This document shows, piece after piece, positions 14,543 through 31,572 of a DNA stretch of 64,000 nucleotides. Within the stretch, counting starts at the first letter, position 1. Each line of letters starts with the position of its first letter. The stretch spans positions 271,189 to 335,188 of the forward strand of contig OZ242318.1 of assembly GCA_965208105.1 (NCBI GenBank). Direction: 5' to 3'. The stretch comes from Candidatus Latescibacterota bacterium (GTDB taxonomy: Bacteria; Latescibacterota; UBA2968; UBA8231). A program made the position numbers and the translations under genes. The notes below the pieces were generated by a model. That model was not told the DNA's origin and searched no databases. It saw only the letters and a list, made by a program, of their open reading frames with translations.

Positions 14543-14562
14543 CCAAGAGGAGGGACGCTGGC

Positions 14563-14853: not shown

Positions 14854-14926
14854 CGCGTGGTCGCAAGGACTGATCTGAAGCTGGGGTCCGGAGATCGCAT
14901 GGCCAGGATGGCGGCCCTGCGCCGGG

Positions 14927-15044
14927 AAGATGCAGCAGCTTGCAGCGCAGTTACGGCAGCAGCAGGCCGATGCGAAAACTGGATGAGGCGATTGCAGAGA
15001 ATCTTTTTGCACTCACAGAGCAGGAATACCGAGAATTGGAATAG
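14927..15044 (+). pseudogene. Second, frameshifted hsdM C-terminal remnant
   Basis: KMQQLAAQLRQQQADAK, then a frame change to (K)LDEAIAENLFALTEQEYRELE* (TAG 15042-15044). Same region of HsdM as the remnant at 14090-14228 but divergent in sequence. Confidence 0.45.
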
Positions 15045-15165
15045 CCGAGGATGACAAACCATTCACCCAGTTGGCGATTGATGACCGCAGCCTCAGCAAA
15101 TACGAGAACCCACCGCTCCGGGCTCTCGACTCTACGCCTAACCTGGCAATCACCCATACCTATCC

Positions 15166-15495: not shown

Positions 15496-15510
15496 CAATA
15501 CGATATAGCT

Positions 15511-16278: not shown

Positions 16279-16459
16279 AAATACTTCGTTGAATTTTAAC
16301 AGGTGAGCCAGTCAGCGCAGTGTCACGTCATATAACAGCCCGGTATTGCGCTGGGCAGCATGCGCCGCTTGGCCCTATCGGGCTACCCTCCTTTTCGCTC
16401 TGGGTTCGCAAACCCTTAAACGTATTGCGCAAATTCTACTTCGATGAGGCAGAGGCAGC

Positions 16460-17374: not shown

Positions 17375-17564
17375 AGTCGCTGAGGAAAAAACAGCGCATA
17401 CCAGGTCCGCGTCCGGCTTCAGGCTTGCTCCCTTCGCGCAAATGCTACGCGGTTCGGGCACGGGGGAAACGTTAAGCGCTCGTTCGGATTAGTCTACCAG
17501 ACGAGATGTAATCGAGGCAGTACGGATCGAAAGCCCGTGGCTTGGTCCGCGAGCAATGGTAAGG

Positions 17565-17945
17565 TTAGACACTTCCTATTACACGTCCCTGCCCGGCTTC
17601 GGTCGGATATCCATCCCTCTTCCACCAGTCCAGACCTCCCATCAGCTCCTTAACCCGAAATCCTAACCGGGCCATATTCAACGCCCCCTTGGTCGATGCA
17701 TTGCAGCCGATGCCGTCGCAGTAGGTGACGTAAAGCGCCTCTCGGTCCAAATGGGCGGTCGCTTCTTCGCTCATGGTGCGGTGGGGGATATTGACCGCAC
17801 CGGGTATATGCTCCTGCGCAAATGCTTCGGGAGACCTCGCATCGATTACCACCACGTTTTCCCCTTTCTCGATGGCTTCGTTGAGATCCCACGAGTCCGT
17901 TTCATAGCTCAGTTTATCCTGGTAGTGTCGGGTTTGCTCGTTCAT
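17565..17945 (-). CDS. Rhodanese-like domain protein
   Basis: 126 aa. VVIDARSPEAFAQEHIPGAVNIP...LYVTYCDGIGCNASTKGA...GGLDWWKRDGYP; the active-site Cys loop is present. Confidence 0.8.
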   Translation of the reverse strand: MNEQTRHYQDKLSYETDSWDLNEAIEKGENVVVIDARSPEAFAQEHIPGAVNIPHRTMSEEATAHLDREALYVTYCDGIGCNASTKGALNMARLGFRVKELMGGLDWWKRDGYPTEAGQGRVIGSV

Positions 17946-18073
17946 TCTTTTTCCTCTGTTGTCTAGTAAACTTCATTGGATATGATTTTGGCCTGACCGG
18001 TGCCGTGAAGGAAAATATCGTTCAGGCGGATTCTGTCGACTCGCCGCCTTCAGCCGAGAGCCATCTGCAGACC

Positions 18074-19633
18074 TCACCCGCCCGGATGCGCCCAGTCCGG
18101 CAGCACTCCCGGTTCGATCCCGAAGAGCAGCGGGCCCATGGCGCGGAAGACCAGGGTGATCACCACCGCGCCCACAATGTTGAGGACGATGCCGACCCGC
18201 GCCATCTCCGAGATTTTGACGCGGTCGCTGCCGAATACCACCGCGTTGGGGGGCGTGGCCACCGGCATCATGAAGGCGCAGGAGGCCGACAGGGTGGCCG
18301 GGATCATCAGCAGCAGGGGGTGAACCCCGGTGGACACGGCGACGGCGGCGAAGATGGGCAGCACCATCTCGGTGGTTGCCGTGTTCGAGGTGAGTTCGGT
18401 GAGAAAGGTGATCGCCAGGCAGATGAGGAGGACGAGGAGGACGGGCGGCACCGCGCCCAGCCCGTCGAACCCTTCGCCGATGAAGCGGGCAAGTCCCGTG
18501 GTCCGGAATCCGTGGGCCAGGGCGAATCCTCCACCGAAGAGCAGCACGATGTTCCACGGCAGCCGGCGCACCACGTCGGGCCCCATCACCGTCCTGGATT
18601 GGGCGCCTGGAGACCGGGCGGGAATCAGGAAGAGGATGGCGGCCATGGCGATGGCCACGGTTCCGTCGTCGATCAGGTGGCCGAAGGGAAGGAGGGTGGA
18701 CCAGCCGGGGATGGTGAGTCCGCCGATGGCGATGGGCGCGCGAAAGACCCAGAGCACCGCGGTCAGGCCGAAAACCGCGAGGACCGCTTTTTCCTCGAAG
18801 CCGATGGCGCCGAGCTTGCGCATCTCCGACTCCACCACGCTCCGGTCGACGGCGACCCCGCTGGATATGCGGAAGAAGACCTGGGTGATCAGGGCCCAGG
18901 CGCAGGCGAGCAGCAGAGCCGAGATGGGAGCGGCCATGACGAACCAAACCCCGAAGGACAGGGGCGGCGCTTCGGGGAAGGTGATCTGGAAGATGCGCTC
19001 CAGGGAGAGGTTGGGCGGAGTGCCCACCAGGGTGGCGATGCCCCCGGCCGAGCAGGCGTAGGCGATCCCCAGCATGACGGCCACCGAGAACGGCCGGGTG
19101 TGCTCTCTGCCGAACTGCTCCTCCATCCTCAAAATCACCGCCAGGCCCACCGGAATCATCATGATCGCAGTGGCGGTGTTGGAGATCCACATGGAGAGCA
19201 GGGCGGAGGCGAGCATGAACCCCAGCACGATGCGCGCCGGCCCCCCGCCCACGGCGCGGATGACCCAGAGGGCGATGCGGCGGTGGACGTTCCACTTCTC
19301 CATGGTCAGGGCGATCATGAAGCCGCCCAGGAAGAGGACGATGGTGCTGTTGAAATAGATGGGAGCGGTGGACCCGGTGCGCTCGATGCCCAGCAGCGGA
19401 AAGAGGAACAGGGGGAGCAGGGCGGTGGCGAAGAGGGGAATGGCGTCGGTGATCCACCAGGCGGCCATGAGCACGGCAAGGGCCGCCATGCGGGTGACCT
19501 CCGGCCTGCCCGGCTCCAGGTCGAGAATCAGGGTAAGCGCGAACAGGATGGGTCCGAGCCACAGGCCGATGCGCTGGCCCCGCGACCGGGGCTCCGCGGA
19601 AGTCGGCGGTGGATGATTGGGTGTAGTGGTCAT
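18074..19633 (-). CDS. SLC13/DASS family anion:sodium symporter
   Basis: 519 aa, polytopic. Duplicated SNTATA / SNTATT hairpin motifs (WISNTATAIMMIPV, LTSNTATTEMVLPI) are typical of DASS transporters. Confidence 0.85.
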   Translation of the reverse strand: MTTTPNHPPPTSAEPRSRGQRIGLWLGPILFALTLILDLEPGRPEVTRMAALAVLMAAWWITDAIPLFATALLPLFLFPLLGIERTGSTAPIYFNSTIVLFLGGFMIALTMEKWNVHRRIALWVIRAVGGGPARIVLGFMLASALLSMWISNTATAIMMIPVGLAVILRMEEQFGREHTRPFSVAVMLGIAYACSAGGIATLVGTPPNLSLERIFQITFPEAPPLSFGVWFVMAAPISALLLACAWALITQVFFRISSGVAVDRSVVESEMRKLGAIGFEEKAVLAVFGLTAVLWVFRAPIAIGGLTIPGWSTLLPFGHLIDDGTVAIAMAAILFLIPARSPGAQSRTVMGPDVVRRLPWNIVLLFGGGFALAHGFRTTGLARFIGEGFDGLGAVPPVLLVLLICLAITFLTELTSNTATTEMVLPIFAAVAVSTGVHPLLLMIPATLSASCAFMMPVATPPNAVVFGSDRVKISEMARVGIVLNIVGAVVITLVFRAMGPLLFGIEPGVLPDWAHPGG

Positions 19634-19708
19634 TGGGTTTGTCGACTTCTCTCTGGACTGAAATTACGGCCTAGGCCACCCCACGATCTTCCAGGAAAAG
19701 AAGAGGAC

Positions 19709-20734
19709 TCATCGGACCAGGTGTCCGAAGCGGTTCCAACGGACGGAAAATCCATCCTGGACCGAAAGATACACGATCCCCGCCTTGGCGCGCAGGGAGG
19801 AGCGTGGAACCGGACCGTGAGTGCGGCTGTCGGAACTGCTGTCCCGGTTATCGCCTAGAAGGAAATAGTGGCCCCGTGGGACTTCGATCGGGTCCGCAAT
19901 GTCCATCCAGGCATGTCGAGGCCCTCGGTAGACGCCCGGATCACCTGGCAAAGGCTTCCCGTCGATGTATAGGACGGTGTCGCGCAAGGAGATCTGTTCC
20001 TCCGGCAGCGCCATGATCCGCTGCGCCAGCATCTTCCCCGGTTCCTTCGGGTGTTCGTAAACGACAATGTCTCCTCGGCTCGGCTCGAAGGTACGGGCCC
20101 ATCGCCTATCGGTTGTGATGTTGTCACCTTTCAGCAGGGCAGGCTCCATGGAAGTGGACGGAATTTTGAAACTCTCGATGTGGTTCTTGATCTGATGGTG
20201 CATTTTTTCGATGACCACGAACTCGAACCAGGCCGTGAATGCCAGGACGGCCAGGGCGATGGGCAACTCGAATCGCAACTGAGGTCTGATACGAGTGGCG
20301 CAGGTTCCGCTGATCAGGTCGTGAAGGCCTCGCTTTCCTTGCGTGAACGGGATTAGAAGAAATGATATCCCAAGTACCAAAAAGTCGGCGAGGGTGCGAA
20401 GCAGACTTCGGCCAAAGGAAACAGGCCGCAGCTTCCGGTCCACCACGGCCAGACCGAAAAGGCTCTTACCCGGCGACTGCCGGCCTTGAGCATTGAGATA
20501 CGCCAGACCTGAGATGTTGGCGGCCAAGCTCCCCGGGAACCACACAAACAGGAAAAGCTGCAGAAGCGCTTCCGTGCTCAACCTCGCGCCGAGGTGAAGG
20601 AACAGTAGCAGGAGAGCGGAAGTTGTGAAGGTCAATCCCAACGAGTCGACCAGGGCACTGGCGAGGCGAACCCAGAAACCTGGAGGATTTTCTGGCACCA
20701 TAACCTGATCCTGGCCACACCCACGTACGATCAT
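19709..20734 (-). CDS. Fusion protein: N-terminal RDD-family membrane domain plus C-terminal signal-peptidase-I-like (S26) domain with a divergent box D
   Basis: 341 aa. RDD: PPGFWVRLASALVDSL...GRQSPGKSLFGLAVVDRKLRPVSFGRSLLRTLADFL...KRGLHDLISGT. S26: IPSTSMEPALLKGD (box B Ser), RGDIVVYEHP (box C), GDNRDSSSDSR (box E). Box D reads LAQRIMALPEE instead of xxKRxxGxPGD. Start ATG 20734 lies 8 nt after the hsdM stop (alternative start ATG 20701). Confidence 0.7.
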   Translation of the reverse strand: MIVRGCGQDQVMVPENPPGFWVRLASALVDSLGLTFTTSALLLLFLHLGARLSTEALLQLFLFVWFPGSLAANISGLAYLNAQGRQSPGKSLFGLAVVDRKLRPVSFGRSLLRTLADFLVLGISFLLIPFTQGKRGLHDLISGTCATRIRPQLRFELPIALAVLAFTAWFEFVVIEKMHHQIKNHIESFKIPSTSMEPALLKGDNITTDRRWARTFEPSRGDIVVYEHPKEPGKMLAQRIMALPEEQISLRDTVLYIDGKPLPGDPGVYRGPRHAWMDIADPIEVPRGHYFLLGDNRDSSSDSRTHGPVPRSSLRAKAGIVYLSVQDGFSVRWNRFGHLVR

Positions 20735-20742
20735 AAGGCGTA

Positions 20743-22230
20743 TTACTGTGTGCTCAGGTCGGCGAGTACCTCGCGGAAGCTGTTGAGACCTGCCTCCAGG
20801 TTCTCGATGATCTCTTCGGCGAGCTCGTCGGGCTCAGGAAGGTTGTCCAGGTCTGTCAGGCTTTCGTCCTTGAGCCAGAAGATGTCGAGACTGGTCTTGT
20901 CGCGTGCGCTGATCTCCTCGTAGCTGTAGCTGCGCCAACGGTCTTCCGGTGCGTCGTTTTCGTCCCAAGTCGCCTTGCGCTGATGCCGGTTCTGCGGGTT
21001 ATAGCAGTTGATGAAGTCCGACAGGTTCTCGAAGCGCATCGGGTTCTTCTTCAGCGTATGGTGAATATTAGTGCGGTAGTCGTAGTACCAGACCTGCTTC
21101 GTCCAGGGGTTCGGGCTGGCTTCGTGGTTGTCGAAGAAGATCACATTGGCCTTGACCCCTTGCGCGTAGAACACGCCGGTCGGCAAGCGCAGGATGGTGT
21201 GCAGGTCGGTGTTGTCCAGCAGCTTTTTGCGGATTGTCTCACCGGCACCACCTTCGAACAGCACGTTGTCGGGAACGACGACGGCAGCGCGGCCAGTGGT
21301 TTTGAGCATCGTGTGGATGTGCTGCACGAAATTGAGTTGTTTGTTCGAGGTCGTCGCCCAGAAGTCCTGCCGGTTGTAGGTGAGGTCGTCTTTCTCCTGT
21401 TCGCCCTCCTCGTTCGTGAAGCTCATTGAGCTTTTCTTGCCGAAAGGCGGATTTGCGAGCACATAATCAAAGCGCTCGCCGGCATCGGCCACGAGCGAAT
21501 CGTTTGGCGATATGGATACGCCGCCGTCGATCTCGCCAATGTTGTGCAGGAACATGTTCATCAGGCACAGACGGCGTGTATTGGCGACGATCTCGTTGCC
21601 GTGAAACGCCTCGTGCTTCAGGAACGCCTTCTGATTTCTGTCCAGGTTGAAGTTGTGCGGGTTGGTGATGAAGTCGTAGGCGGCGAGAAAGAAACCGCCT
21701 GTACCGCAGGCCGGGTCGGCGATGAGCGTGCCCGGTTCGGGGCGGACGCATTCGACCATAGCGCGGATGAGGGCGCGCGGAGTGAAATACTGGCCTGCGC
21801 CTGACTTGGTATCTTCGGCGTTCTTTTCAAGAAGTCCTTCGTAAATATCTCCTTTTACATCGGCACCCATGGTCACCCATTCGGTGTCGTCTACCATGTT
21901 GATGAGGCGGAACAGCCTTGCCGGGTCCTGGATCTTGTTCTGGGCCTTGGTAAAGATCTGGCCTAACATGTCCGTCTTAGTGCCATGCTCGCGAAGCAAG
22001 GTGACGTAGTGGTTTTCGAGCTCCGCACCGTTCTTTGATTTCAGGCTCTGCCAGTTGAATTCGGCTGGGATGCCGACATCGCGGTTGTACGGCGGTTTGG
22101 CGTATTCATCGGCCATCTTGAGGAAGATCAAATAGGTGAGTTGCTCCAGGTAGTCGCCATAGCTCACCCCGTCATCTCGCAGGGTGGTGCAGAAGCTCCA
22201 GACTTTGGAGACGATGGGAGCGGTGTTCAT
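20743..22230 (-). CDS. hsdM: Type I restriction-modification system DNA methyltransferase subunit M
   Basis: 495 aa. N-terminal HsdM_N (VWSFCTTLRDDGVSYGDYLEQLTYLIFLKMADE), motif I DPACGTGGF, motif IV LANPPFG. Confidence 0.95.
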   Translation of the reverse strand: MNTAPIVSKVWSFCTTLRDDGVSYGDYLEQLTYLIFLKMADEYAKPPYNRDVGIPAEFNWQSLKSKNGAELENHYVTLLREHGTKTDMLGQIFTKAQNKIQDPARLFRLINMVDDTEWVTMGADVKGDIYEGLLEKNAEDTKSGAGQYFTPRALIRAMVECVRPEPGTLIADPACGTGGFFLAAYDFITNPHNFNLDRNQKAFLKHEAFHGNEIVANTRRLCLMNMFLHNIGEIDGGVSISPNDSLVADAGERFDYVLANPPFGKKSSMSFTNEEGEQEKDDLTYNRQDFWATTSNKQLNFVQHIHTMLKTTGRAAVVVPDNVLFEGGAGETIRKKLLDNTDLHTILRLPTGVFYAQGVKANVIFFDNHEASPNPWTKQVWYYDYRTNIHHTLKKNPMRFENLSDFINCYNPQNRHQRKATWDENDAPEDRWRSYSYEEISARDKTSLDIFWLKDESLTDLDNLPEPDELAEEIIENLEAGLNSFREVLADLSTQ

Positions 22231-23834
22231 GTGGGGGCATCTCTTGTCTTGAGTCGCACAGCCAAAGCCTCGCCGCCGGCAGTTCGGCGATAGCGCTGGT
22301 GGCGACTTTGTGGTTTGTCAGGGAGGGTCATTTCGATCAGACCAGCCTTGAGGGCGGGGCCAAGGTATGCTTCCACGAAGTGAGGCCGGTTACTTATGCC
22401 CAGGATGTCCTGTAGCTGAGGACGGTTCATTTCCCCCGTGAGGATTGAGATCAGGCGTTCAACATGTTCTGTGACATGTATGGTCTCATGTACGGTATCT
22501 TGTTGGGTGTCCTGACTTTTCTCCTTATTTTCCAATGACTTATCTTGTTCGGTCTCATGTTCGGTCGCGGCAAGAAAAGCCCGTTCATGTACTGGCAATC
22601 GCACCAGAAACCAAGTTCGGTTCTCATCGCTTTCGAAGATGGGTTCCGGTGAGCCGTTCTGCAGCATGGCCCGGAAGATCTTCGGCACCCCGGTTGAGCG
22701 CGCCTCGGCGAGGTCGAGTTCTTTCAGAAACTCGCCAATTCGCCGGTTCCGGTAGCGCCTGCTCACGGCCTGCCCCTTCTTGAAGTCATCCATACGGATG
22801 GAGCGGTCCGCACCGGGATAACTCAAGACCAGCAACTCTTCGCGGGTGATCCGAACTTCAACCGGCTCCCGCTCCTCGTATGAGCGATGGTAGATGGCGT
22901 TTACCAAGACCTCTTCGATAGCGCCGATGGGGAAATTCCAGAATCGCTCGGCCTCCGGCATGTGGGGATACTTGACGACGGTCTCCTTCAGGTAGTTCCG
23001 CTCAATGTAACTGATGGCCTCGCCGAGAATGATGGACAACGGCCCGCGGAACTCCTTCTCCTCGAACTGATCGCCGCCCGGCCCATCGGGAAACCACACA
23101 ACATCGATCTGGGTGGCCGGAAAAAACCTGTCTGGCCGCTCGTTGAAGAACAGCAGACCGACGTTCTTCGGGAACATCGCCTCGGGCGGGCCGCCGACGA
23201 TGTTCAGGCGCTTGCCCAAGTCCTCGACGGACAGGCCCTCTGCTTCCGATGCCAGTTCGCTGCCGATTTCCACGAGAAACTCACGGATCAGCCGGTGGGA
23301 CAGGTCATCAAGCGAAGCAGTCTGGCGATAGCGGTCGTCAAAAGGTACTGTGGCCGCCAGGCTGAGCAGCTCACGCTCGTCCTGACCCTTGGCGCGAACC
23401 GTGCTGCTGTGTCTGCGAATGAAGTAGGCCCAATCGTTGCGCTCCGCACTCAGACTCACTTTGGCTTTGTAGGGACGGGTTTCGCCGCCGGGCACCCAGA
23501 GGACGAGGATGGTCCGGCCATCGACGTTGTAGGCAGCGGTGAGGGGATGGTAATGCGGCTGTATGGCGGCATGCCCCAGATTGAGCAGTTCCTTCTGTAT
23601 CGCATCGACAGCATCGGGTCTGATGCCCTTGGGCGGCAAAATTGGGCGGCCATTTTGTTCCTGGACGCCTAAGACCACGTAACCGCCGCCTAGATTGTGG
23701 AAGTCGTTGGCGAAGGCGCAGATGGTGTGCAGCACGCTCTGCGGATTCCAGCCAGCCTTGTACTCGATGCGTTCTCCTTCGATGGGGCGCTGGCGCAGCA
23801 GGTGGTCGATGTTGATGGGAAGTTTGCCGGTCAT
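22227..23834 (-). CDS. AlbA_2 (Schlafen-like 'divergent AAA') plus HATPase_c_4 plus C-terminal wHTH protein embedded in the R-M operon
   Basis: 535 aa. EGERIEYKAGWNPQSVLHTICAFANDFHNLGGGYVVLGVQE (AlbA_2 signature) and EEVLVNAIYHRSYEEREPVEVRITREELLVLSYPG (HATPase_c_4 signature). ATGA overlaps with hsdS (23831-23834) and hsdM (22227-22230). Confidence 0.8.
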   Translation of the reverse strand: MTGKLPINIDHLLRQRPIEGERIEYKAGWNPQSVLHTICAFANDFHNLGGGYVVLGVQEQNGRPILPPKGIRPDAVDAIQKELLNLGHAAIQPHYHPLTAAYNVDGRTILVLWVPGGETRPYKAKVSLSAERNDWAYFIRRHSSTVRAKGQDERELLSLAATVPFDDRYRQTASLDDLSHRLIREFLVEIGSELASEAEGLSVEDLGKRLNIVGGPPEAMFPKNVGLLFFNERPDRFFPATQIDVVWFPDGPGGDQFEEKEFRGPLSIILGEAISYIERNYLKETVVKYPHMPEAERFWNFPIGAIEEVLVNAIYHRSYEEREPVEVRITREELLVLSYPGADRSIRMDDFKKGQAVSRRYRNRRIGEFLKELDLAEARSTGVPKIFRAMLQNGSPEPIFESDENRTWFLVRLPVHERAFLAATEHETEQDKSLENKEKSQDTQQDTVHETIHVTEHVERLISILTGEMNRPQLQDILGISNRPHFVEAYLGPALKAGLIEMTLPDKPQSRHQRYRRTAGGEALAVRLKTRDAPT

Positions 23835-25414
23835 GCTGTTGCTGTCGTGCGTCTGCGTTTTGCCCGCGTGTTGCTTTGAGACCGTGCAGCTTTTTCGGCT
23901 TTGATACGGTCAAGGAGGCTGGATGCAGGCTCGTCATCCGGGTCTTGCGGGACGAGCTTGCCGGAGAAGGCTTTTTTGAGGATGGATTGGCGGAGTGTCT
24001 CCGCCTGATTCAAGGCCGAATCGATCTCTCGCTCCTGCTGCTCGATCACCGCGAATCGCTCCTCCAACAGTCGGACAATTTCTTGCTGTTCGGCCAGAGA
24101 ACAGAGTGGGAGCGCGATCTGAGCGAACTTGAATGCACCTAAGTGGTTGATTCCCACGCCGCCTGCAACTTGAGCAAATTTCCCGCTCACATAGAAGAAG
24201 CGATACAACCAAAACAGATAAACCGCATAGTCACGACAATATGGTTGATGTCTGATAACGGTGTTTTGAAAGCAGCAATTCGGGATCTGATCGTCCCAAA
24301 TCGCTGGCTTTCCGACTTGCGCTGCGCTGCCGGATGCTTCGGACAGAACCAAATCACCCTTTTCCAGACGGTATGCGTTTAGGTCGTGAGGAAGGAAGTC
24401 CATGTCGAGAACGTCGTCCAAATCCAAACCCTGTTCCGTAATGTTCGCAGCTCGGATGTACTTCGTGGGATAATCCTTAGACCTGTTCTTTGGAGAACGT
24501 TGTCGACCGAGTTGGACGATTCCTATAGACTCGGCGGTCAACCATAGCCAACCACTCGGCAGTGATTCTAGGTGAGCGATCTCGTCTTCTGCTATCGTTG
24601 AGACTGGCTTGGGCATTCTTGACCGTGCCGGCCCCTTGCCTGACCTACCGCTTTCCTCCCATTCCTTGACGGTGGCCTTCCACTCCTGAAGTTGCTGTCT
24701 GTAACGCGCTTCCCGCTCTTGCTTGATGCGAGCAAGTAATTGTCCGGGCGTCTCAAGCTTGTCTTTGTTCTCTTCGCGCCACTGGTCCGTGAGTTTGCCT
24801 TCGAAGGCGTGCTTGAGTACGGCTTGGCGATAGACGTTGAGCTGCGCGCGTGCGGTCTTCAGGCTCTCGACACCTTTGTCCAGTTCGGAAAACAGTTCCT
24901 CGATCTTGGCGGCGATGCGCCGCTGTTCGGCTATGGGAGCAAGAGGTATCGGAAGGTCGCCGAAGGCTCTACCAGATAGCTCCAAAAACGTCGTACCACT
25001 CGCACGTTTGCGCGCGTAGTCTCGTGAGGCCATCAAGTAGTAGTAGACATACTCATTGAAAATACCAGATGCAGGAATGAGGCTCTTGAAACCCTGGTTT
25101 GTGGCTAGCGGCTCCGAGCTGATGACGACGTAGCCGATTGGTGCGCGCGTGGAGAAGTGTACGCTACCGGCTGGCATCACCTTCGCCGAGCTATTCGAGA
25201 GGCCAATCTTGGAAATGCTCTTTGTCCCCCTCTTGATGGTCTTTGCCGAGAACCCCGTCAAGTCGGCTGGTGAAATCCAATTGATCTCATTTTTCCAATA
25301 TGTCGGTTCTTTGGTTGACGGGGTTCCACCTGCGACGATGTCGCCGAGTGCTGATAGCTTGGTCCACACCCAGCTATTAGGTAGTGCCCATCGCGATTCT
25401 GGCTCACGACTCAC
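23831..25414 (-). CDS. hsdS: Type I restriction-modification system specificity subunit S (two TRDs)
   Basis: 527 aa. LPNSWVWTKLSALGDIVAGGTP... and LPSGWLWLTAESIG... start two target-recognition domains. Conserved helices are PLAPIAEQRRIAAKIEELFSELD and PLCSLAEQQEIVRLLEERFAVIE. Confidence 0.9.
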   Translation of the reverse strand: MSREPESRWALPNSWVWTKLSALGDIVAGGTPSTKEPTYWKNEINWISPADLTGFSAKTIKRGTKSISKIGLSNSSAKVMPAGSVHFSTRAPIGYVVISSEPLATNQGFKSLIPASGIFNEYVYYYLMASRDYARKRASGTTFLELSGRAFGDLPIPLAPIAEQRRIAAKIEELFSELDKGVESLKTARAQLNVYRQAVLKHAFEGKLTDQWREENKDKLETPGQLLARIKQEREARYRQQLQEWKATVKEWEESGRSGKGPARSRMPKPVSTIAEDEIAHLESLPSGWLWLTAESIGIVQLGRQRSPKNRSKDYPTKYIRAANITEQGLDLDDVLDMDFLPHDLNAYRLEKGDLVLSEASGSAAQVGKPAIWDDQIPNCCFQNTVIRHQPYCRDYAVYLFWLYRFFYVSGKFAQVAGGVGINHLGAFKFAQIALPLCSLAEQQEIVRLLEERFAVIEQQEREIDSALNQAETLRQSILKKAFSGKLVPQDPDDEPASSLLDRIKAEKAARSQSNTRAKRRRTTATA

Positions 25415-28185
25415 GCCGCTAACGCCTCATTCAATTCGTCAATCACATCATACATCCGGTCGCCAAAGAGATTGTACATCTGCCCAAGGCCGCCCCTGCC
25501 ATCGAACGGAGCCATGTCCAGGTCGTCGCGGTCCAGATGAAACGAGGTGATGATGTGGTCACGGATCATGCGTAGCCAGCCCATCTGCTCCTCGTTGAAC
25601 TTCTCTCCGCTACCGCTGTGGTGCGCCATAATCCAATTCTGAAAATTGCGGCGCACGGTTTCCGAATAGGGAGACAGTGTCGCGTCGATACCGCAAACCC
25701 GGCGGATCAACGCCACGAGCGCGATCAGTTCACTATCCGGTTGGCTGCCTTTGTATTCATCAAGCAAGGAGTATGCCTGCCAGACCCGCAAAGGGGCTAG
25801 TCGAGGCTGGTCGCTCTTGAGCTTGTCGAAAACCTCGCGGATCATCTCGAAGGTCAGCTCTCTGCGCCTATGCGGTTGGGCGTAGAAGATGGTCAGGGCT
25901 TCGATCTCGTCTCGATTCGCTTCCAAATACTGGCGGAAGTCCTGTACCATGGCTTCGGCGTTCTCGTGCGCGTCGCCTTCCCATTCAGCGCGCTCCACGG
26001 TGTCCAGGCTGTCATGGTCGATGGTCTGTTCCTTGTCGCGACGAATCGAGTCGATCAGCTCAATCAACTCGCCGTTGAAAACGCTGGCAGCGTCACGGAC
26101 CAGCTGCTCCTGAGCCGTTTCGCGTGCCGCCGATGACGGCTCGGCCTCGTCGGGCACCGGCTCGGTCTCGCGGGCCTTCGCTTCGATTTGGTCTGGGTCG
26201 ATGGCCTCCAGCAGATTGCCGACGATAGCGGTGAGTTCGATGCCGCCAGCCTTTTGGCGGATTTGTTCCTGCTCAGCGTGGTCGAGTTGTCGGTTGAGCC
26301 TGGCAAGGCGGCCGGCAAGTGAGCTCACGGTGTCTTCGTCGTGCGCGCCCATCATCACGCCCGTGAGGAGATCCTTGAGTGGCACAGAGGGCTTGGTGAT
26401 GAGTGGCTGGCTGGCGGTCTTGAGTGATTTCGTCACGCCGACGGCATCCACGATCACATAGTGGGTCTTTCCGCTGACAGCGGAAGGGGAGACTTTCTTG
26501 AGGTCGTCATGGTCCAGTGTCCGGGTGCCGCGTCCCTTCATCTGCTCGAAGTAGTTGAGGCTCCTCACGTCGCGCATGAAGAGCAGGCATTCAAGCGGCT
26601 TGACGTCGGTACCCGTGGCGATCATATCCACCGTCACAGCGATACGCGGGTAGTAGTCGTTTCTGAACTGGGCGAGGACGGACGCCGGGGCTTCTTCGGT
26701 TCTGTAGGTGACCTTTTTGCAGAACTCGTTGCCTTCGGCGAATTCCTCGCGCACGGTCTGGATGATGTCGTCGGCGTGGCTGTCGGTCTTTGCAAAAATC
26801 AGTGTCTTCGGAACTTCGCTGCGGCCTGGGAATATCTCGGGCAGTTTGTCGTGGAACGTGCGGACGACCGTGCGGATCTGGTCGGGGTTGACGACGGCGC
26901 GGTCGAGTTCCCGGGCATCATAGGTAGAGTCTTCTTCCTGGATCTCCCAGCGCTTTCGGCGGGTCAGGCGCTCGCGCTTTTCGACCTGCTGGCCGGTTTC
27001 GAGCCAGCCTCCGTGCTGCGTCCGTTCCGTATCGATGACGTAGATCTCGTTGCCGACATTGACGCCGTCAGCGACAGCTTGCTCATGGGGGTACTCGCTG
27101 ACGACGTTCTTCTTGAAGAATCCGTAGGTGCGTTTGTCCGGTGTGGCTGTCAGGCCGACGAGATAGGCGTCGAAATATTCGAGGACTTGACACCAGAGGT
27201 TGTAAATCGATCTGTGGCACTCGTCGATGACGATAAAATCGAAAAACTCGGGAGGGATTTTTTCGTTATAGACAACCGGCACTGGATATTTGAGCTTAAC
27301 CATTTCCTCCGGGTTGATCTCTTCGGCAGATTCGTCCAACTCCTCGCCCTTAAGGATCGAATACATACGCTGGATGGTGCTGATGCAGACTTGGATGTCC
27401 TGCGCGACGAAGGAGGATTGGAGACGCTGGACGTTGTAGAGTTCGGTGAATTTCCGGTTGTCGTCACCGGGTACGTAGGCCATGAATTCCTGCTCCGCCT
27501 GTTCCCCCAGATGCTTTGTGTCTACAAGAAAGAGGATTCGCTTGGCGCTGGCGTGTTTGAGCAGCCGGTAGATCGAGGTGACGGCGGTGTAGGTCTTGCC
27601 CGAGCCAGTGGCCATCTGAATGAGGGCGCGCGGGCGGTCATCTTTGAAAGATGCCTCCAACCTCTCAATGGCGCTGACCTGGCAGGACCTCAGCCCTGCA
27701 GGGTCTAAATCCGGAAGCTCTTGGAGCCTCTCACGAAGGGAACCCGGCTGGGTATGCCAGTCCTGGATCGTCTTTGGCCGAGGGTAGTTGAACACTTCCC
27801 GGGAGCGGGGCCTTGGATCGCGTCCGTCGGTGAAGCGCGTGAGCACACCAGTACTTTCATAGACGAATGGCAGGGGGTCTTTATTGTTCACCCACTTGAG
27901 CTCGGCAGCGGCATAGGCGGCGGATTGCTCCTCGGCAGTCGTGATTTTATGACCCCACTCCTCCGGCTTGGCCTCGACAATACCGACAGGTTTCTTGTCG
28001 ACAAAGAGAACGTAGTCGGCTGGTCCAACATCCGTCTGATACTCGCGAACGGCGATCCCGAGGCCAGCGTTGAGGTCGATCTTTTTCTTGTCCTGAACTA
28101 TCCAGCCAGCATGGGACAACGACTGATCGATCTCGTCTCGCGCCGCCTGTTCCGGGGTTTGATTGATTTTCGTAATTTTGCTCAT
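25411..28185 (-). CDS. hsdR: Type I restriction endonuclease subunit R (EcoEI-like C-terminus)
   Basis: 924 aa. N-terminal nuclease D...EAK (ADYVLFVDKKPVGIVEAKPE), helicase motif I MATGSGKT, DECH box (VIDECHRS), TATP, and a long helical C-terminal domain. Confidence 0.95.
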   Translation of the reverse strand: MSKITKINQTPEQAARDEIDQSLSHAGWIVQDKKKIDLNAGLGIAVREYQTDVGPADYVLFVDKKPVGIVEAKPEEWGHKITTAEEQSAAYAAAELKWVNNKDPLPFVYESTGVLTRFTDGRDPRPRSREVFNYPRPKTIQDWHTQPGSLRERLQELPDLDPAGLRSCQVSAIERLEASFKDDRPRALIQMATGSGKTYTAVTSIYRLLKHASAKRILFLVDTKHLGEQAEQEFMAYVPGDDNRKFTELYNVQRLQSSFVAQDIQVCISTIQRMYSILKGEELDESAEEINPEEMVKLKYPVPVVYNEKIPPEFFDFIVIDECHRSIYNLWCQVLEYFDAYLVGLTATPDKRTYGFFKKNVVSEYPHEQAVADGVNVGNEIYVIDTERTQHGGWLETGQQVEKRERLTRRKRWEIQEEDSTYDARELDRAVVNPDQIRTVVRTFHDKLPEIFPGRSEVPKTLIFAKTDSHADDIIQTVREEFAEGNEFCKKVTYRTEEAPASVLAQFRNDYYPRIAVTVDMIATGTDVKPLECLLFMRDVRSLNYFEQMKGRGTRTLDHDDLKKVSPSAVSGKTHYVIVDAVGVTKSLKTASQPLITKPSVPLKDLLTGVMMGAHDEDTVSSLAGRLARLNRQLDHAEQEQIRQKAGGIELTAIVGNLLEAIDPDQIEAKARETEPVPDEAEPSSAARETAQEQLVRDAASVFNGELIELIDSIRRDKEQTIDHDSLDTVERAEWEGDAHENAEAMVQDFRQYLEANRDEIEALTIFYAQPHRRRELTFEMIREVFDKLKSDQPRLAPLRVWQAYSLLDEYKGSQPDSELIALVALIRRVCGIDATLSPYSETVRRNFQNWIMAHHSGSGEKFNEEQMGWLRMIRDHIITSFHLDRDDLDMAPFDGRGGLGQMYNLFGDRMYDVIDELNEALAA

Positions 28186-28462
28186 CTACCCTTCAAGTTT
28201 GGTCCGGAATGCCCAGGAGAGCTATCAGCATGGGACTCTCAATGCATGTGAGGGATTAGTTCATTGAGCGCTTGGGAGGCAGTATATCCAAGTACATGCT
28301 ATTGGAACAATTAGGCACCATTCCGAGAACATTGTCAAGGGTCCTGATGCAGGTGAAAGGTCGGTAGAATACCCGAGGAATCGATGATCGATTTTGCTTT
28401 TTGAAATCCTCACCTATTCTCTTATTTTCAATGGAATTTTGCTAGATTCGGAGGAAGGGGAC

Positions 28463-28858
28463 ATGAGCCCAGAAAAACTATTCGAAGCCGCCTTCCCCTA
28501 TGGCGAGGACATCTTCGCCTTGCCGGTGGAGGACCTGGACCAGGCCGCGAAGTGGTACGGCGCCGCATTTGGAATGGCCGAGGTGGAAAGGCGCGACGAC
28601 CCCGTGCCGACTGTGGTTCTCGAGCGCGACGGGGTGCGGGTCGGATTTGCGATCAACGGCGGCGACGCCGGCCAGGAAGGCGCGGCCATTCTGGTGAACG
28701 ACATCCACCGGGCCCGGCAGGAGCTGGAAGCCAGCGGCGTCGAAACGGGCAACTGGCGCGTCGACGAGCGCGACGGCGAGAAATTCCAGGTTTTCTTCGT
28801 CGTCGCCCCTGACGGGCTTTGCTACTACTTCCATCAGCCCCTCGAAAACGCCGGCTAG
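28463..28858 (+). CDS. VOC (glyoxalase/bleomycin-resistance) family protein
   Basis: Internal ATG 28463 of ORF 28394..28858, with GGAGGAAGGGG upstream. FALPVEDLDQAAKWYGAAFGM...FFVVAPDGLCYYF. Confidence 0.7.
   Translation: MSPEKLFEAAFPYGEDIFALPVEDLDQAAKWYGAAFGMAEVERRDDPVPTVVLERDGVRVGFAINGGDAGQEGAAILVNDIHRARQELEASGVETGNWRVDERDGEKFQVFFVVAPDGLCYYFHQPLENAG
28833..28858 (+). repeat. Direct repeat copy 1 (ATCAGCCCCTCGAAAACGCCGGCTAG), the 3' end of the VOC gene
   Basis: 25 of 26 nt are identical to 30386-30411. Confidence 0.9.
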
Positions 28859-28893
28859 GAGCAGCTCATGGTTCGAACCATCGGGCTCCGCAC

Positions 28894-30207
28894 TCATGAT
28901 TCCATTACCAGCCGGAACCCGGGGATGGCGAACTGGAAGGTCAGGGGCCAGAAGTTGCGGTAGCTGATGCGGATGTGGTCCTTGGGCGTCGCCCAGCTCC
29001 CCCCTTTGAGGACCATCTTGTTGCTCATGAACTTGCCGTTGTACTCGGCGATGGCGCCGTCGTAGGGCCGAAACCCGGGGTAGGGCAGGTAGGAGCTGTT
29101 GGTCCATTCCCAGACGTTGCCAATCATGTGCTTGAGCCCTCCTTCCTGAGGCGTCATCGCCGGCCGGTACGCCTCCCCGTCCAGAAGCACCGCTTCATTC
29201 TTGCGCACCTGCGCCATGGCGTCGGTGCGCCGGGCGGCGTGCTCCCATTCCGCCTCGGTGGGCAGGCGCACGATCCTGTCCCCGCCGCGGCTTTTCCAGT
29301 TGGCGTAGGCCGCGGCCTCAAAGTAGCTCAGGTGAGAGACCGGCTCGTGGGGATCCGTCTCCTGCCAGCCGTGCAGGGTGAACTGCTGCCACATGCCGTC
29401 GATCTGTTGCCAGTATAGGGGAGCCCGGGGGAAAATCTCTCTATCCGCCAGCCGGAGCACCGGCCGCATGGAGCCGTCATCCCAGGCCTCGGAGAGCCAC
29501 CAGGCGAAGTTCTCGTAACCGCCGTCGGCGATGAACTCCAGAAACTCACCGTTGGTCACCGGGCGGTTCATCATGGCAAAGGAATGGATGTATTGGCGGT
29601 GCACCCCGTACTCGTTGTCGAAGCCGAACCCACCTTCCAAGTTGCCCACCTCTGCAATGGTCTCTTCGAAGGGGATCCACTGGAGGGGGATCTCCACCGA
29701 GCCCGGGGCACGGGACTCGCCGCTGATGCGGTCGCCTTCTGTGCGGCGCTCGAATCTGTTGCGCAGAACCTCGGTGTAGAACAGCTCCTGGTGCTGCTGC
29801 TCGTGGTTGATCCCCAACTCCACCAGCCGGTCGAACTCTTCGCCGTGGTCGCCGTCGAGGAGGAGGTCCATCACCTCGTCCACGTCGGACCGGTACTTCA
29901 ATATGCCCCGAAGAGGGGCCTCGTGGACGAGCACCGCGCCGCGGCAGGCTTGGCGCACGTGACGGCCAGCCCCCTTGTAGTAGGAGTTGAAGTGATACCA
30001 CAGCTTGCCGTCCCGCCCGAGGGACCCGGCGTACCTGCCGAGGATGACGGCGTCGAAGAACCAGTTGGTGTGCCCAAGGTTCCAGGCCGGCGGGCTCACC
30101 TCCTGCACGGCCTGGTGGTAAAATTCCTCCTCGCTCAGCAGCGCCACCATTTCAAGAGAGTGGTTGCGCACCCTGTGATACCTCTCGCGTAGAGAATCAA
30201 CAGACAC
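28894..30207 (-). CDS. egtB: EgtB-like sulfoxide synthase (DinB_2 plus FGE-sulfatase domains)
   Basis: ORF 28894..30225; likely start is GTG 30207, behind AAGGAGGA. PPAWNLGHTNWFFD, GINHEQQHQELF (DinB-type His ligands), and a C-terminal GNVWEWTNS...GGSWATP FGE-type fold. No egtD-like gene is present in the window. Confidence 0.7.
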   Translation of the reverse strand: MSVDSLRERYHRVRNHSLEMVALLSEEEFYHQAVQEVSPPAWNLGHTNWFFDAVILGRYAGSLGRDGKLWYHFNSYYKGAGRHVRQACRGAVLVHEAPLRGILKYRSDVDEVMDLLLDGDHGEEFDRLVELGINHEQQHQELFYTEVLRNRFERRTEGDRISGESRAPGSVEIPLQWIPFEETIAEVGNLEGGFGFDNEYGVHRQYIHSFAMMNRPVTNGEFLEFIADGGYENFAWWLSEAWDDGSMRPVLRLADREIFPRAPLYWQQIDGMWQQFTLHGWQETDPHEPVSHLSYFEAAAYANWKSRGGDRIVRLPTEAEWEHAARRTDAMAQVRKNEAVLLDGEAYRPAMTPQEGGLKHMIGNVWEWTNSSYLPYPGFRPYDGAIAEYNGKFMSNKMVLKGGSWATPKDHIRISYRNFWPLTFQFAIPGFRLVMES

Positions 30208-30385
30208 ATCTCCTCCTTTACCCAAAGGTTTGCTAAGGCACGCCTTTTTGGGCCCGCCGTCAAGGGTAGGAGCTGCGGGTGTCAGGGGAGCCCCGGGATG
30301 ATACTGGGCAGGGCCTGCGGTGGTACTTGCCGTGGGAGTATCCGGCGGATTGGCCAGGGTAGGGAATCAAGGGGGTATTGGCCGG

Positions 30386-30411
30386 ATCAGCCCCTCGAAA
30401 ACGCCGACTAG
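30386..30411 (+). repeat. Direct repeat copy 2 (ATCAGCCCCTCGAAAACGCCGACTAG), abutting the IS630 left end
   Basis: 25 of 26 nt are identical to 28833-28858. The upstream frame is not VOC-like. Confidence 0.9.
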
Positions 30412-31566
30412 TGCGCTGTTAAAGAGTGGGCATTGAATTTTGTATTTTGGCGAGCTTGGCATCGTCCTGGTTTCGATTTCTCCATACGAGGTATTCCTGC
30501 ATGCGCTGGCCGATGTCTCGATGGTCCCTTGGGTCGCTGTTCTTGATGACGAAGTAGTGGGCGGCCGTCATGTGGCATTCGAGACGGTTCATCCAGGAGG
30601 CGTTGGTAGCGGTGAAGACGAGGGAGACTCGATGCTGCCGACACCATTGCCGAATCTTTCGGGTCGCGTGCGTCGACAAATTGTCCAGAACGAGGTAGAT
30701 GCGTTGGGCCTTGCGGTAGCGGTGCCGGATGGCCTTGAGGAAAGTGAGCACCTCCGAGGCGTGCTTCTTTCGCTTGTGATGCATCCACAGGACGTCCTCG
30801 TGGACGTTGTAGGCGCCGAAGAAATAGCTGACCCCGGCGTGCCGGGTGTAGGTGGCTCGGTGCCGCACCGGGTGCTTCTGCGGCGCCCAGGAGGAGCCGG
30901 CATGGGGCTTGATCTGCACGGGCCCCATTTCGTCGAAGCAGACTACGACCGAGTCCTTCGGCGCACGCCGGTAGAGGCGGTCGATGCGTTTTTTTTCGAG
31001 GAGAAATCCGGATCCTTCGACTCCTTCCAGGTGCGGGTACGTTGGTAGGTGACCTTATGCCGGTCCAAGACCTTGGCGATGGTCACGTGCGAGACCTTGG
31101 GGATCATCTTGCGCCCGACCAGACAGTCGGTCAGCTTGCGCAGCGACCACTGGTTGAAGGGTTGGCCGAAAGCCCGAGGGGGCATCTTGGCGATCTCCAC
31201 CACCACGGACTCGTCTTCGGGCGTCAGCGCTGGGGTGCGCCCCGGGTGGGCTCGCGTGCGAAGCGACGCCAGCCCTTCCTCGTTGTATCGTCGGACCAGG
31301 GAGCGGATGTATTCCTCGTGCAGATGCAGCGTCGCCGACAGCTCCTGGACCCGCATACCCTGGGCACTGAGGGAGATCAATTGCCCTCGTCGCATCTGTA
31401 CGGCATTGCGTGGCCGCTTCAGCCATCGGCCCAGTTCTTTCGATTCGGCCGCATCCGGTGTTCGAGCATGGAGGCACATGGCAGGACCCTCCCAGAAAAA
31501 TGGACATAGGTCCCCATGATACCAACATGTACGAAAAAGTACAAGCCTGAATCCTTAACAGAGCAC
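30411..31566 (-). mobile_element. IS630-family insertion sequence with TA target duplication in a CTAG site
   Basis: Terminal inverted repeats GTGCGCTGTTAAAGA (30411-) and the reverse complement of the right end GTGCTCTGTTAAGGA (13 of 15 match). TA at 30409-30410 and at 31567-31568. The reconstructed empty site is ...GCCGAC-TA-GGGGTC.... Length and the two-ORF DDE transposase fit IS630. Confidence 0.85.
30419..31479 (-). CDS. IS630-family DDE transposase in two frames (HTH OrfA 30943-31479, DDE OrfB 30419-about 30990), joined by -1 slippage at an A8 run
   Basis: OrfA reads ...RTWKESKDPDF. On the coding strand, A AAA AAC lies within A8 (T8 at 30989-30996 on +). The -1 frame continues LLEKKRIDRLYRRAPKDSVVVCFDEMGPVQIKP...LVLDNLSTH...WMNRLE (D, D, E). 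Confidence 0.75.
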
Positions 31567-31572
31567 TAGGGG

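Follow-up and report, generated by a model that had tools for sequence, protein, structure and literature searches.

The locus under study is composed of two units and not of one: a type I restriction-modification (R-M) cassette at 20743-28185, and a fifth gene at 19709-20734 of the window (the whole 64,000 nucleotide stretch of DNA analysed). The region is probably a mobile cassette of four genes inserted beside a resident gene unrelated to it. The cassette itself is a mobile type I R-M of the ordinary sort, and the Schlafen-type defence gene embedded in it is of a known kind. The five co-directional minus-strand ORFs of the first-pass annotation are all found exactly where it had placed them, as follows.

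25411..28185, minus strand: hsdR, type I restriction subunit, 924 aa, first cassette gene (Pfam, PADLOC)
23831..25414, minus strand: hsdS, specificity subunit, 527 aa (Pfam, PADLOC, junction)
22227..23834, minus strand: embedded Schlafen(AlbA_2)-GHKL ATPase(HATPase_c_4)-wHTH(Fic-like_C) gene, 535 aa (Pfam, motifs, PADLOC)
20743..22230, minus strand: hsdM, N6-adenine methyltransferase, 495 aa, final cassette gene (Pfam, PADLOC)
19709..20734, minus strand: RDD::signal peptidase I gene, 341 aa, resident, outside the cassette (Pfam, TIGR02227, contexts of relatives)

The Pfam domains that had been named for the five proteins are all present with scores above the gathering cut-offs, and the minus-strand junctions read GTGA, ATGA and ATGA as reported.

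The type I R-M cassette and its cargo slot

In type I R-M systems the HsdM2-HsdS1 complex modifies host DNA by methylation at a bipartite site; when two HsdR subunits join it, the complex becomes able to translocate and to cleave DNA lacking this modification. The system in the window is intact, in the order hsdR-hsdS-slot-hsdM. HsdR carries ResIII (4.8e-40), EcoEI_R_C (5.9e-38), HSDR_N and Helicase_C in Pfam and REase_I (1.1e-46) in PADLOC, and matches the NCBIfam type I endonuclease models with scores under their cut-offs. HsdS has Methylase_S in two stretches and matches Specificity_I over residues 6-522 (1.2e-98), while HsdM has N6_Mtase (3.4e-73) and HsdM_N in Pfam and MTase_I (3.3e-197) in PADLOC. 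The GTG start of hsdS overlaps the hsdR stop (GTGA), and the embedded gene has ATGA overlaps at both its 5' and 3' ends. As the identical three overlaps are present in an unrelated metagenomic contig (L093), they are not due to chance. A candidate cassette promoter can be read from the sequence.

28333..28338, minus strand: TTGACA hexamer, 148 nt ahead of the hsdR start codon (ATG), with CCTAAT 17 nt further on

This hexamer stayed below threshold in a consensus scan whose sites occur only at chance rate.

The earlier description of a mobile defence block hosting an accessory gene, after the manner of PrrC in EcoprrI, holds for the four genes, which are coupled and horizontally acquired. The block was also described as AT-rich, and its GC is indeed 0.54-0.58 against about 0.63-0.68 in the flanks; the low GC of the fifth gene is, however, no island signature, since its orthologue lies slightly under the local GC in six of the seven relatives fetched.

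For comparison, 80 metagenomic loci encoding a homologue of the embedded protein were fetched. The cassette gene order recurs in about 15 of them, as R-S-(0-3 extra genes)-Schlafen-M, the identity to the window proteins being 76-98% for HsdM and 64-82% for HsdR. In these related cassettes hsdM is usually the terminal gene, the ORF after it being on the opposite strand in seven loci. The remaining 65 loci have flanks with BrxC/DUF6079, HsdR, methyltransferases, AbiEi and BrxL. Cargo of the slot in metagenomic cassettes includes ApeA-HEPN, AAA_21 plus HNH, EVE plus GNAT, a KAP NTPase, SIR2 plus HerA, Fic and Zeta, and among plasmids that encode the same HsdM lineage the slot holds DUF262 in Gemmobacter and is empty in Vibrio. 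The hsdS-hsdM slot of this R-M lineage is thus a site of interchangeable defence cargo, which in the window is the Schlafen(AlbA_2)-GHKL ATPase-wHTH protein.

The embedded Schlafen-type protein

The embedded protein has three Pfam domains: AlbA_2 (residues 19-148), HATPase_c_4 (325-407) and a wHTH of the Fic-like_C type (PF21247; 456-517); its residues 33-427 match the PADLOC pAgo model PDLC02394. Across 114 homologues four groups of motifs, E18-x4-E23-Y-K25, C38-A-F-A-N-D43, G48-G-G-Y51 and E306-E307-x3-N311, show either no variation or a conservation of 90% or more. In the window copy both nuclease motifs, E-x4-E-x-K and SAFAN, are retained along with the GHKL E-x3-N, in agreement with those described for RzAgo and bacterial Schlafens (bioRxiv 10.64898/2026.05.29.728809; 10.1101/2025.07.24.666596). 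At the third acidic position of the active site (57/58) conservation within the family is not strict, and E58 stands opposite SLFN11 D252 in a weak alignment (E-value 0.6). Two AlphaFold models were of low quality (pLDDT 43 and 53). The dN/dS of the gene against the sister strain L081 (about 95-96% identical) is 0.146. Its domains and motifs place the gene in the prokaryotic Schlafen-GHKL ATPase-HTH class ("Schlatpase", pSlfn-HisKinase-HTH).

The proposed novelty of a combination of a Schlafen-like protein and an S26-like membrane protein with hsdRMS is not supported, as proteins of this class embedded in R-M and BREX have been published repeatedly (Payne 2024, supplement FAM_00002; PMC13462974; PMC12839542; bioRxiv 10.64898/2026.05.29.728809; bioRxiv 10.1101/2025.07.24.666596). 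Work of 2024-2026 predicts the class to be an abortive-infection tRNase, and published surveys give its activation mechanism as unknown (PMC13462974). No experimental test of a stand-alone Schlafen-GHKL-wHTH protein in a type I R-M was found in the literature on this class.

By analogy with the SLFN-pAgo RzAgo, the one characterised protein with the module, and with other bacterial and mammalian Schlafens, we infer tRNase activity and ATP-driven assembly for the embedded protein. Oligomerisation would yield the active Schlafen nuclease, which would cut tRNAs and so halt translation, providing a second, abortive-infection layer once a phage has passed restriction. Possible triggers could be DNA ends or single-stranded DNA, a protein of the phage, or an R-M complex that has been disabled.

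The last of these triggers is central to a reading in which the protein is a guard of the PrrC kind, wired to and silenced by the R-M complex and freed when a phage anti-restriction protein disables HsdM or HsdS. EcoprrI provides the precedent, translational coupling links the Schlafen gene to hsdM in the window, the stop of the former overlapping the start of the latter in 7/10 related cassettes too, and the protein diverges in step with HsdM and HsdR, their identities to the window copies declining together (Spearman 0.86 and 0.95). However, the same HsdM lineage also occurs with DUF262 or an empty slot, the same Schlafen subfamily (53-65% identical) is found by itself as well as in BREX loci and other methyltransferase loci, and L081, where hsdS and hsdR are gone and hsdM is broken, still has an intact Schlafen gene. 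Because the slot varies, the subfamily lives elsewhere or alone and L081 keeps the gene without hsdS and hsdR, the Schlafen is seen as an autonomous module, and we consider such a guard unlikely.

It is also rather improbable that the protein regulates the R-M operon by binding DNA, in the manner of a C-protein or BrxR, and is no nuclease effector. The C-terminal wHTH would suit this function, COG2865 in eggNOG puts the family in category K (transcription) under the old label of transcriptional regulator, and Ryazansky et al. treated the Schlafen/AlbA_2 domain as DNA-binding. A pure regulator would, however, have no need of the (near-)invariant E-x4-E-x-K, SAFAN box and GHKL catalytic E/N, and the homologous module of RzAgo is a demonstrated, ATPase-dependent tRNase (bioRxiv 10.64898/2026.05.29.728809). 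Furthermore the gene sits inside the operon and not at its 5' end, and it is also found solitary on plasmids with nothing obvious to regulate nearby.

The RDD-signal peptidase gene and the flanks of the cassette

The features around the cassette are the following.

18074..19633, minus strand: Na_sulph_symp/CitMHS transporter, conserved downstream partner of the RDD::S26 gene (Pfam)
23844..28889, no strand: segment missing from L081, spanning hsdS, hsdR, the intergenic stretch upstream of them and a glyoxalase-like ORF in divergent orientation (blastn, L081 against the window)
28394-28858, plus strand: the divergent glyoxalase-like ORF (Pfam Glyoxalase, 1.3e-07)
28894..30225, minus strand: FGE-sulfatase/DinB_2 gene, resident, on the other side of the cassette (Pfam)
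30419..31479, minus strand: IS630-like transposase, DDE_3 and HTH_32 ORFs (Pfam, blastn gap)

The fifth protein carries RDD and Peptidase_S26 (Pfam) and scores 111 bits against TIGR02227, whose cut-off is 47. The S-M-E-P box of the catalytic Ser is present, as is the GDNR..S.DSR box, while the catalytic Lys is replaced by Gln (codon 20024-20026), the residue being K in 22/22 relatives (alignment A1). The gap of 8 nt previously given between the hsdM stop and this gene is correct for the first ATG, but a start at Met12 (ATG at 20701) is more likely, on account of an AGGA upstream and an N-terminus matching that of a 96%-identical relative (P0001), and makes the gap 41 nt. The RDD::signal-peptidase family is small, with about 30 clusters.

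The RDD::S26 gene is a resident chromosomal gene which travels with the Na/sulfate-type transporter and is independent of the cassette. The transporter is its neighbour in L081, L083, L085 and L087 as in the window, with 84-86% nucleotide identity to distant relatives. The fifth protein is a membrane signal-peptidase-I paralogue, RDD-anchored and belonging with the downstream DASS-type transporter, and the position of its gene after hsdM reflects nothing more than where the cassette inserted. Read-through transcription from hsdM is plausible and, if it occurs, is a by-product of the insertion site.

That the five genes form one defence system, with AlbA_2/wHTH as infection sensor and RDD::S26 as membrane effector, is highly improbable and largely refuted by neighbourhood counts. 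In its favour, the genes are co-directional and 8-41 nt apart, no terminator-like site was found between hsdM and the fifth gene, and L081 has the arrangement Schlafen-hsdM(remnant)-RDD::S26 as well. This arrangement is, however, shared by common descent with the window and is not independent evidence. None of the 80 Schlafen loci encodes an RDD::S26 relative, six of the seven RDD::S26 relatives have no R-M gene upstream, the conserved partner being the downstream transporter, the operon ends at hsdM in related cassettes, no PADLOC model matches the fifth protein, and the catalytic Lys is missing from the window copy.

On the other side of the cassette the FGE-sulfatase/DinB_2 gene has 92% nucleotide identity to L081, in which the Schlafen gene comes immediately after it. 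The IS630-like transposase is the only mobile element seen, and 30306-31567 around it is missing from L081. The decayed R-M remnants and TA modules mentioned in the first-pass annotation were absent from the ORFs scanned at 14.5-17.9, 28.4-34.5 and 53.9-63.8 kb. In L081 the orthologous locus is adjoined by a second type I R-M with PIN, HicAB and TIR genes, a region with no homology to the window. Ten further ORFs from a crude caller (3-9, 36-37 and 43-50 kb) gave zero Pfam matches of any kind, which does not clear these parts of the window of R-M remnants or TA modules.

Comparison with known systems

For the fifth gene only, the likeness is to bacterial signal peptidase I (LepB, family S26), its S26 domain scoring above the TIGR02227 cut-off; in distinction to LepB, an RDD membrane domain replaces the usual N-terminal anchor and the general-base Lys is Gln in the window protein.

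Autonomous cargo between hsd genes ("guilt by embedding") is found, as here, in TgvAB of Vibrio VPI-2, DarTG2 of EPEC and RloF of Campylobacter, whose chemistry is type IV restriction and ADP-ribosylation, whereas that of the window protein is predicted to be tRNA cleavage. PrrC of the EcoprrI type I R-M is likewise an RNA-targeting suicide effector between hsd genes serving as a back-up layer, which resembles the predicted window effector. Its fold is unrelated, being an ABC-type ATPase with a HEPN-like nuclease, and no PrrC model matched here in PADLOC. PrrC has been named as almost exclusively type-I-embedded. The Schlafen gene is also found without R-M, and nothing here points to its silencing by the R-M complex.

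The Schlafen plus GHKL module is common to the window protein and RzAgo of Runella zeae, where it is an ATP-assembled tRNase causing abortive infection (bioRxiv 10.64898/2026.05.29.728809); the window protein lacks the Argonaute core, and hence the guide-based sensor, and carries a wHTH instead. With the Schlatpase class (pSlfn-HisKinase-HTH, or Schlafen-minimal histidine kinase-wHTH) the window protein shares an identical three-domain architecture, the E-x4-(D/E)-x-K, SAFAN and GHKL E-x3-N motifs, and the habit of placement inside R-M and BREX operons, the difference being in the C-terminal HTH, which is Fic-like_C in the window and HTH_24 in the Acinetobacter members of Payne's tables.

The four-gene cassette and its counterpart in a sister strain

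The ORF map bears out the five co-directional minus-strand open reading frames described in the first-pass annotation, and searches of Pfam, PADLOC and NCBIfam agree with the domains assigned there to the five proteins.

Genes of the five-gene block
25411-28185, minus strand: hsdR; ResIII, Helicase_C and HSDR_N above the Pfam cut-offs, and EcoEI_R_C; PADLOC REase_I, 1.1e-46
23831-25414, minus strand: hsdS; Methylase_S in two stretches; PADLOC Specificity_I over residues 6-522
22227-23834, minus strand: embedded gene, 535 aa; AlbA_2 (19-148), HATPase_c_4 (325-407), Fic-like_C (456-517)
20743-22230, minus strand: hsdM; N6_Mtase 247 bits, HsdM_N 45 bits; PADLOC MTase_I 654 bits over the full length
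19709-20734, minus strand: fifth gene, 341 aa; RDD (17-143), Peptidase_S26 (185-322); above the NCBIfam signal peptidase I cut-off

The three subunits of a type I restriction-modification (R-M) system are present: HsdR with an SF2 helicase motor and an N-terminal nuclease region, HsdM as an N6-adenine methyltransferase with the HsdM N-terminal domain (both by Pfam and PADLOC), and HsdS with two target-recognition domains (Methylase_S twice; PADLOC Specificity_I). The scores that bear on placing HsdR in the EcoAI/EcoEI subfamily (type IB) are 131 bits for EcoEI_R_C, 201 against a cut-off of 550 for the NCBIfam EcoAI/FtnUII model and 387 against 729 for PRK11448. The 4-nt start/stop overlaps of the first-pass annotation are read as GTGA, ATGA and ATGA at the three junctions of the cassette, and the AT-richness noted for the block corresponds to a GC content of 0.54-0.58 against 0.63-0.68 in the surroundings. 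Of the five-gene operon that had been proposed, the four-gene cassette stands, while the fifth gene is a neighbour.

A search for direct repeats and tRNA genes found neither at the cassette borders, and no integrase was recognised by Pfam among the adjoining ORFs, so that the borders are unmarked. The decayed R-M remnants and toxin-antitoxin (TA) modules said to lie nearby did not turn up in the window flanks scanned; a second type I system, described below, does lie beside the corresponding locus of a sister strain (L081). Ten further ORFs taken elsewhere in the window gave no Pfam match and are probably wrong frames due to crude ORF calling in GC-rich DNA.

The gene order in the window is resident genes up to an FGE-sulfatase gene (28894-30225), the cassette, the RDD::S26 gene and a Na_sulph_symp/CitMHS transporter gene. 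Two segments compare the cassette with its remnant.

Decay of the cassette
21369-28889: window
7338-9959: sister strain, L081

Window positions 23844-28889, with hsdS, hsdR, the region upstream of them and a glyoxalase-like ORF in divergent orientation, are absent from the sister strain, and its hsdM has a 460-bp internal deletion. The embedded Schlafen gene is full-length there (535 aa), with a dN/dS between the two strains of 0.146, similar to that of the flanking core genes (0.17-0.24). The sister-strain locus captures an R-M system in decay whose embedded gene persists under purifying selection, and the pair illustrates the course of decay in such cassettes: hsdS and hsdR gone, hsdM broken, the Schlafen gene intact.

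Other differences between the two strains lie outside the cassette. An IS630-like insertion (30306-31567), with DDE_3 and HTH_32 ORFs at 30419-31479 over which the transposase is split, is present in the window and not in the sister strain. Homology stops at 18034, which marks as strain-variable a second low-GC stretch (about 14500-18033; GC 0.52-0.55) with Methyltransf_24/O-methyltransferase, CN_hydrolase and rhodanese genes and several ORFs without matches. On the far side of the transporter, L081 has at its positions 13517-20993 a second type I R-M system (hsdR of another family and an hsdS), interleaved with PIN, DUF433/DUF5615, HicAB and TIR_2 genes; this is a true defence island, which the window lacks.

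The embedded protein, its cargo slot and its possible role

The embedded 535-aa protein scores 48.7 bits with AlbA_2 (cut-off 25.3), 36.1 bits with HATPase_c_4 (cut-off 26) and 80.9 bits with Fic-like_C, all in Pfam; by profile match its C-terminus resembles the C-terminal domain of the Fic protein 4rgl (E = 8.6e-13). Across 114 homologues the Schlafen motifs E18-G-E-R-I-E23-Y-K25 and C38-A-F-A-N-D43 are invariant or at least 90% conserved; G48-G-G-Y51 and E306-E307-x3-N311 are conserved as well. The GHKL residues E307 and N311, invariant and four residues apart, would be the counterparts of E314 and N318 of RzAgo, the SLFN-pAgo of Runella zeae, to judge from motif and spacing rather than from a direct alignment. 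An Ex4(E/D)xK motif and a SAFAN "Schlafen box" are published for bacterial Schlafens (bioRxiv 10.64898/2026.05.29.728809; bioRxiv 10.1101/2025.07.24.666596), and the motifs of the embedded protein agree with these and with the four acidic AlbA_2 residues described in Avs9. The protein has the hallmarks of a "Schlatpase", namely AlbA_2 with E-x4-(D/E)-x-K and the SAFAN box, a GHKL ATPase and a C-terminal HTH, and members of its family lie inside or beside defence systems among the 80 loci compared below. The PADLOC pAgo model PDLC02394 aligns with residues 33-427, a stretch corresponding to the Schlafen+GHKL module in SLFN-pAgos, and in a weak profile alignment (E = 0.6) E58 lies opposite D252 of human SLFN11.

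The large, well-conserved family numbers 4,824 matches, the best 120 of which are 65-96% identical to the window protein; the organisms named among the matches listed are Bryobacterales and Gammaproteobacteria. NCBI labels members as "putative DNA binding domain-containing", "RNA-binding domain-containing" or "ATP-binding" proteins. Relatives in the PDB are only uncharacterised structural-genomics entries (2kyy, 3lmm and, for the wHTH, 4rgl). AlphaFold2 gave a mean pLDDT of 43 with 18 sequences and 53 with 114, confident in the wHTH only. No PrrC, ABC or HEPN model in Pfam, PADLOC or NCBIfam matches the protein, where a PrrC-type anticodon nuclease would have an ABC-type ATPase N-domain and a HEPN-like nuclease C-domain. 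Between GHKL and wHTH, short imperfect tandem repeats (TGTxxGGTCTCATGT..., 22477-22565) encode a low-complexity Thr/Glu/Gln/Asp linker, whose length differs between homologues of 520-631 aa.

The surroundings of the gene were compared in 80 metagenomic loci that a search with the embedded protein retrieved (53-83% identity to it). The cassette recurs as a mobile unit: in about 15 of the 80 the order is hsdR-hsdS-(0-3 extra genes)-Schlafen-hsdM, with HsdM 76-98% and HsdR 64-82% identical to those of the window. Downstream sequence of 300 nt or more is available for 73 loci, and in 12 of them this hsdM directly follows the Schlafen gene; the Schlafen stop and the hsdM start overlap in 7 of 10 cassettes. 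The operon ends with hsdM in the related cassettes; in seven loci the ORF that follows has the opposite orientation. Where genes are added between hsdS and the Schlafen gene, they are known defence modules: ApeA-HEPN, AAA_21+HNH, EVE+GNAT, a KAP NTPase and SIR2+HerA+AAA. In L145 Fic and Zeta genes sit between the Schlafen gene and hsdM.

Positions of extra cargo in related metagenomic cassettes
8573-9895: L090
4943-7347: L101
7545-9014: L107
774-4940: L110
7762-9897 and 11570-13273: L145

By this cargo the related cassettes are a hot spot for embedding. The Fic protein of L145 (11570-12634), adjoining the Schlafen gene, bears the same Fic-like_C wHTH as the window protein (22281-22466), so that two unrelated embedded effectors have one C-terminal module in common. 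Fic-like_C as a docking domain specific to type I systems is unsupported, since the same C-terminus aligns in BREX and stand-alone homologues.

HsdM proteins of this lineage (64-79% identical) are also found on plasmids. A Gemmobacter plasmid has hsdR-hsdS-DUF262-hsdM, a Vibrio plasmid hsdS-hsdM with nothing embedded, a Pusillibacter plasmid hypothetical genes in the slot, and a Methylomonas plasmid an orphan hsdM, all of the same HsdM lineage. From the variable contents in metagenomic and plasmid loci it follows that the scaffold is hsdR-hsdS-[slot]-hsdM and the Schlafen gene one of several interchangeable cargos; this type I scaffold is a clean example of interchangeable defence cargo. The other 65 of the 80 loci lack this R-M family, and defence genes are enriched among the nearest neighbours there: BrxC/DUF6079 (7), HsdR of other families (6), N6_N4 and N6 methyltransferases (7), HsdS (3), AbiEi (3) and BrxL (2). 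Plasmid Schlafen-GHKL-wHTH genes also stand alone, or before a SNF2 gene and a large N6 methylase gene.

The best supported reading is that of a type I R-M system with an autonomous Schlafen effector. [quoted passage not shown] Only architecture, motifs and context are shown here; the activity and its trigger are inferred.

An unlikely alternative is that the embedded protein guards the type I complex and is tied to it, as a PrrC/EcoprrI analogue with a Schlafen fold, and is not an independent passenger. The overlap of the Schlafen stop with the hsdM start would then fix the stoichiometry with the methyltransferase, the protein would stay silent as long as M2S1/R2M2S1 is intact, and it would be released for tRNA cleavage once the complex is put out of action by an anti-restriction protein of a phage, or once HsdR makes DNA ends. 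Translational coupling with hsdM and the co-divergence of the Schlafen protein with the R-M proteins favour such a guard. Against it, the slot is interchangeable, the gene also occurs in BREX and stand-alone contexts, and it is intact in the sister strain, which has neither hsdR nor hsdS. That the catalytic residues are conserved and that the gene also occurs by itself speaks against a role as a regulator.

The RDD::S26 gene beside the cassette

A single defence system made of R-M, Schlafen and RDD::S26 genes, the fifth component being a proposal of the first-pass annotation, is essentially refuted: a check of co-occurrence found no recurrent association, with an RDD::S26 relative in 0 of the 80 loci carrying the embedded protein, and R-M genes in one of seven RDD::S26 contexts, namely the sister strain, whose RDD::S26 is 96% identical.

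The seven contexts were obtained by exact-protein look-ups; a profile search of contigs with the RDD::S26 alignment gave nothing but ordinary signal peptidases, which match at residues 185-340. No R-M gene precedes RDD::S26 in six of the seven relatives (62-69% identical); the gene found upstream there is hypothetical or codes for a PhyH hydroxylase or a small-molecule methyltransferase. A Schlafen gene with an hsdM remnant precedes RDD::S26 in the sister strain only, an arrangement shared by descent with the window. The downstream Na_sulph_symp/CitMHS transporter is common to the window and four of the seven relatives, and DNA matches of distant relatives to the window cover only RDD::S26 (72-77%) and the transporter (84-86%). 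This pairing (window 18074-20734; the relatives' loci L083, L085 and L087) is a case of conserved synteny. The fifth gene is a resident gene, outside the defence system.

The fusion family is small (about 30 clusters, 60-96% identity); one member is labelled Gemmatimonadota, and the family is apparently found in Gemmatimonadota-like genomes. The window protein scores 105 bits with Peptidase_S26 and 111 bits with TIGR02227 (cut-off 47), and no PADLOC model matches it. Its catalytic serine is present (S194 in S-M-E-P, at least 90% conserved). Box D reads A-Q237-R-I-M-A-L-P-E-E, where the general-base lysine of signal peptidase I is expected (K-R-x-x-G-L-P-G-D/E); the codon is CAG (20024-20026), against AAG in the sister strain, and the lysine is kept in 22 of 22 aligned relatives. 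The window copy may be catalytically dead, or the changed base may stem from an error in sequencing.

Met12 (ATG 20701), which leaves a gap of 41 nt to the hsdM stop, is the probable start of the gene, as judged from an upstream AGGA and the match to a relative's N-terminus. Its low GC was rejected as an island signature, as the orthologue is slightly below local GC in six of the seven relatives fetched. No terminator-like site was found between hsdM and the fifth gene in a scan of 17.8-29.2 kb, in which counts of promoter and terminator sites are at the level of shuffled controls and so uninformative for operon boundaries. Read-through from hsdM into the fifth gene is plausible and, if it occurs, would be a consequence of where the cassette landed.

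Relation to known systems

The discovery value of the locus is little, since the embedded class and its link with R-M and BREX are published and the proposed fifth component lies outside the system. Compact four-gene cassettes (the window and the metagenomic locus L093) would be convenient objects for testing the trigger of a stand-alone Schlafen-GHKL-wHTH protein.

The first-pass annotation knew of no described system that joins a Schlafen-like AlbA_2 protein and an S26-like membrane protein to hsdRMS. The operon consists of four genes with a neighbour, and the combination is not novel. AlbA_2/HATPase_c_4/HTH proteins (COG2865) are FAM_00002 among the families embedded in BREX, DISARM and R-M systems (Payne et al. 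2024). The pSlfn-HisKinase-HTH architecture makes up 19.2% of 5,930 bacterial Schlafens, and other Schlafen architectures are phage-triggered tRNases (Taboada et al. 2025, bioRxiv 10.1101/2025.07.24.666596). Clusters of Schlafen, ATPase and DNA-binding domains are tightly linked with BREX, R-M and type I CRISPR (Weickert et al. 2026, PMC13462974), and a 2026 BREX survey counts at least 1,017 taxa with Schlafen-minimal histidine kinase-wHTH proteins, which it calls "backup suicidal effectors" (PMC12839542). Type I R-M systems with embedded defence genes are well documented for TgvAB, DarTG2, RloF and PrrC. The Schlafen+GHKL pair has been named "Schlatpase" and accounts for 58.6% of 103,533 prokaryotic Schlafen proteins; the same SLFN-pAgo preprint shows that RzAgo cleaves tRNA and that ATP drives its tetramerisation, and it mentions a stand-alone Schlatpase encoded within a type I R-M operon (bioRxiv 10.64898/2026.05.29.728809).
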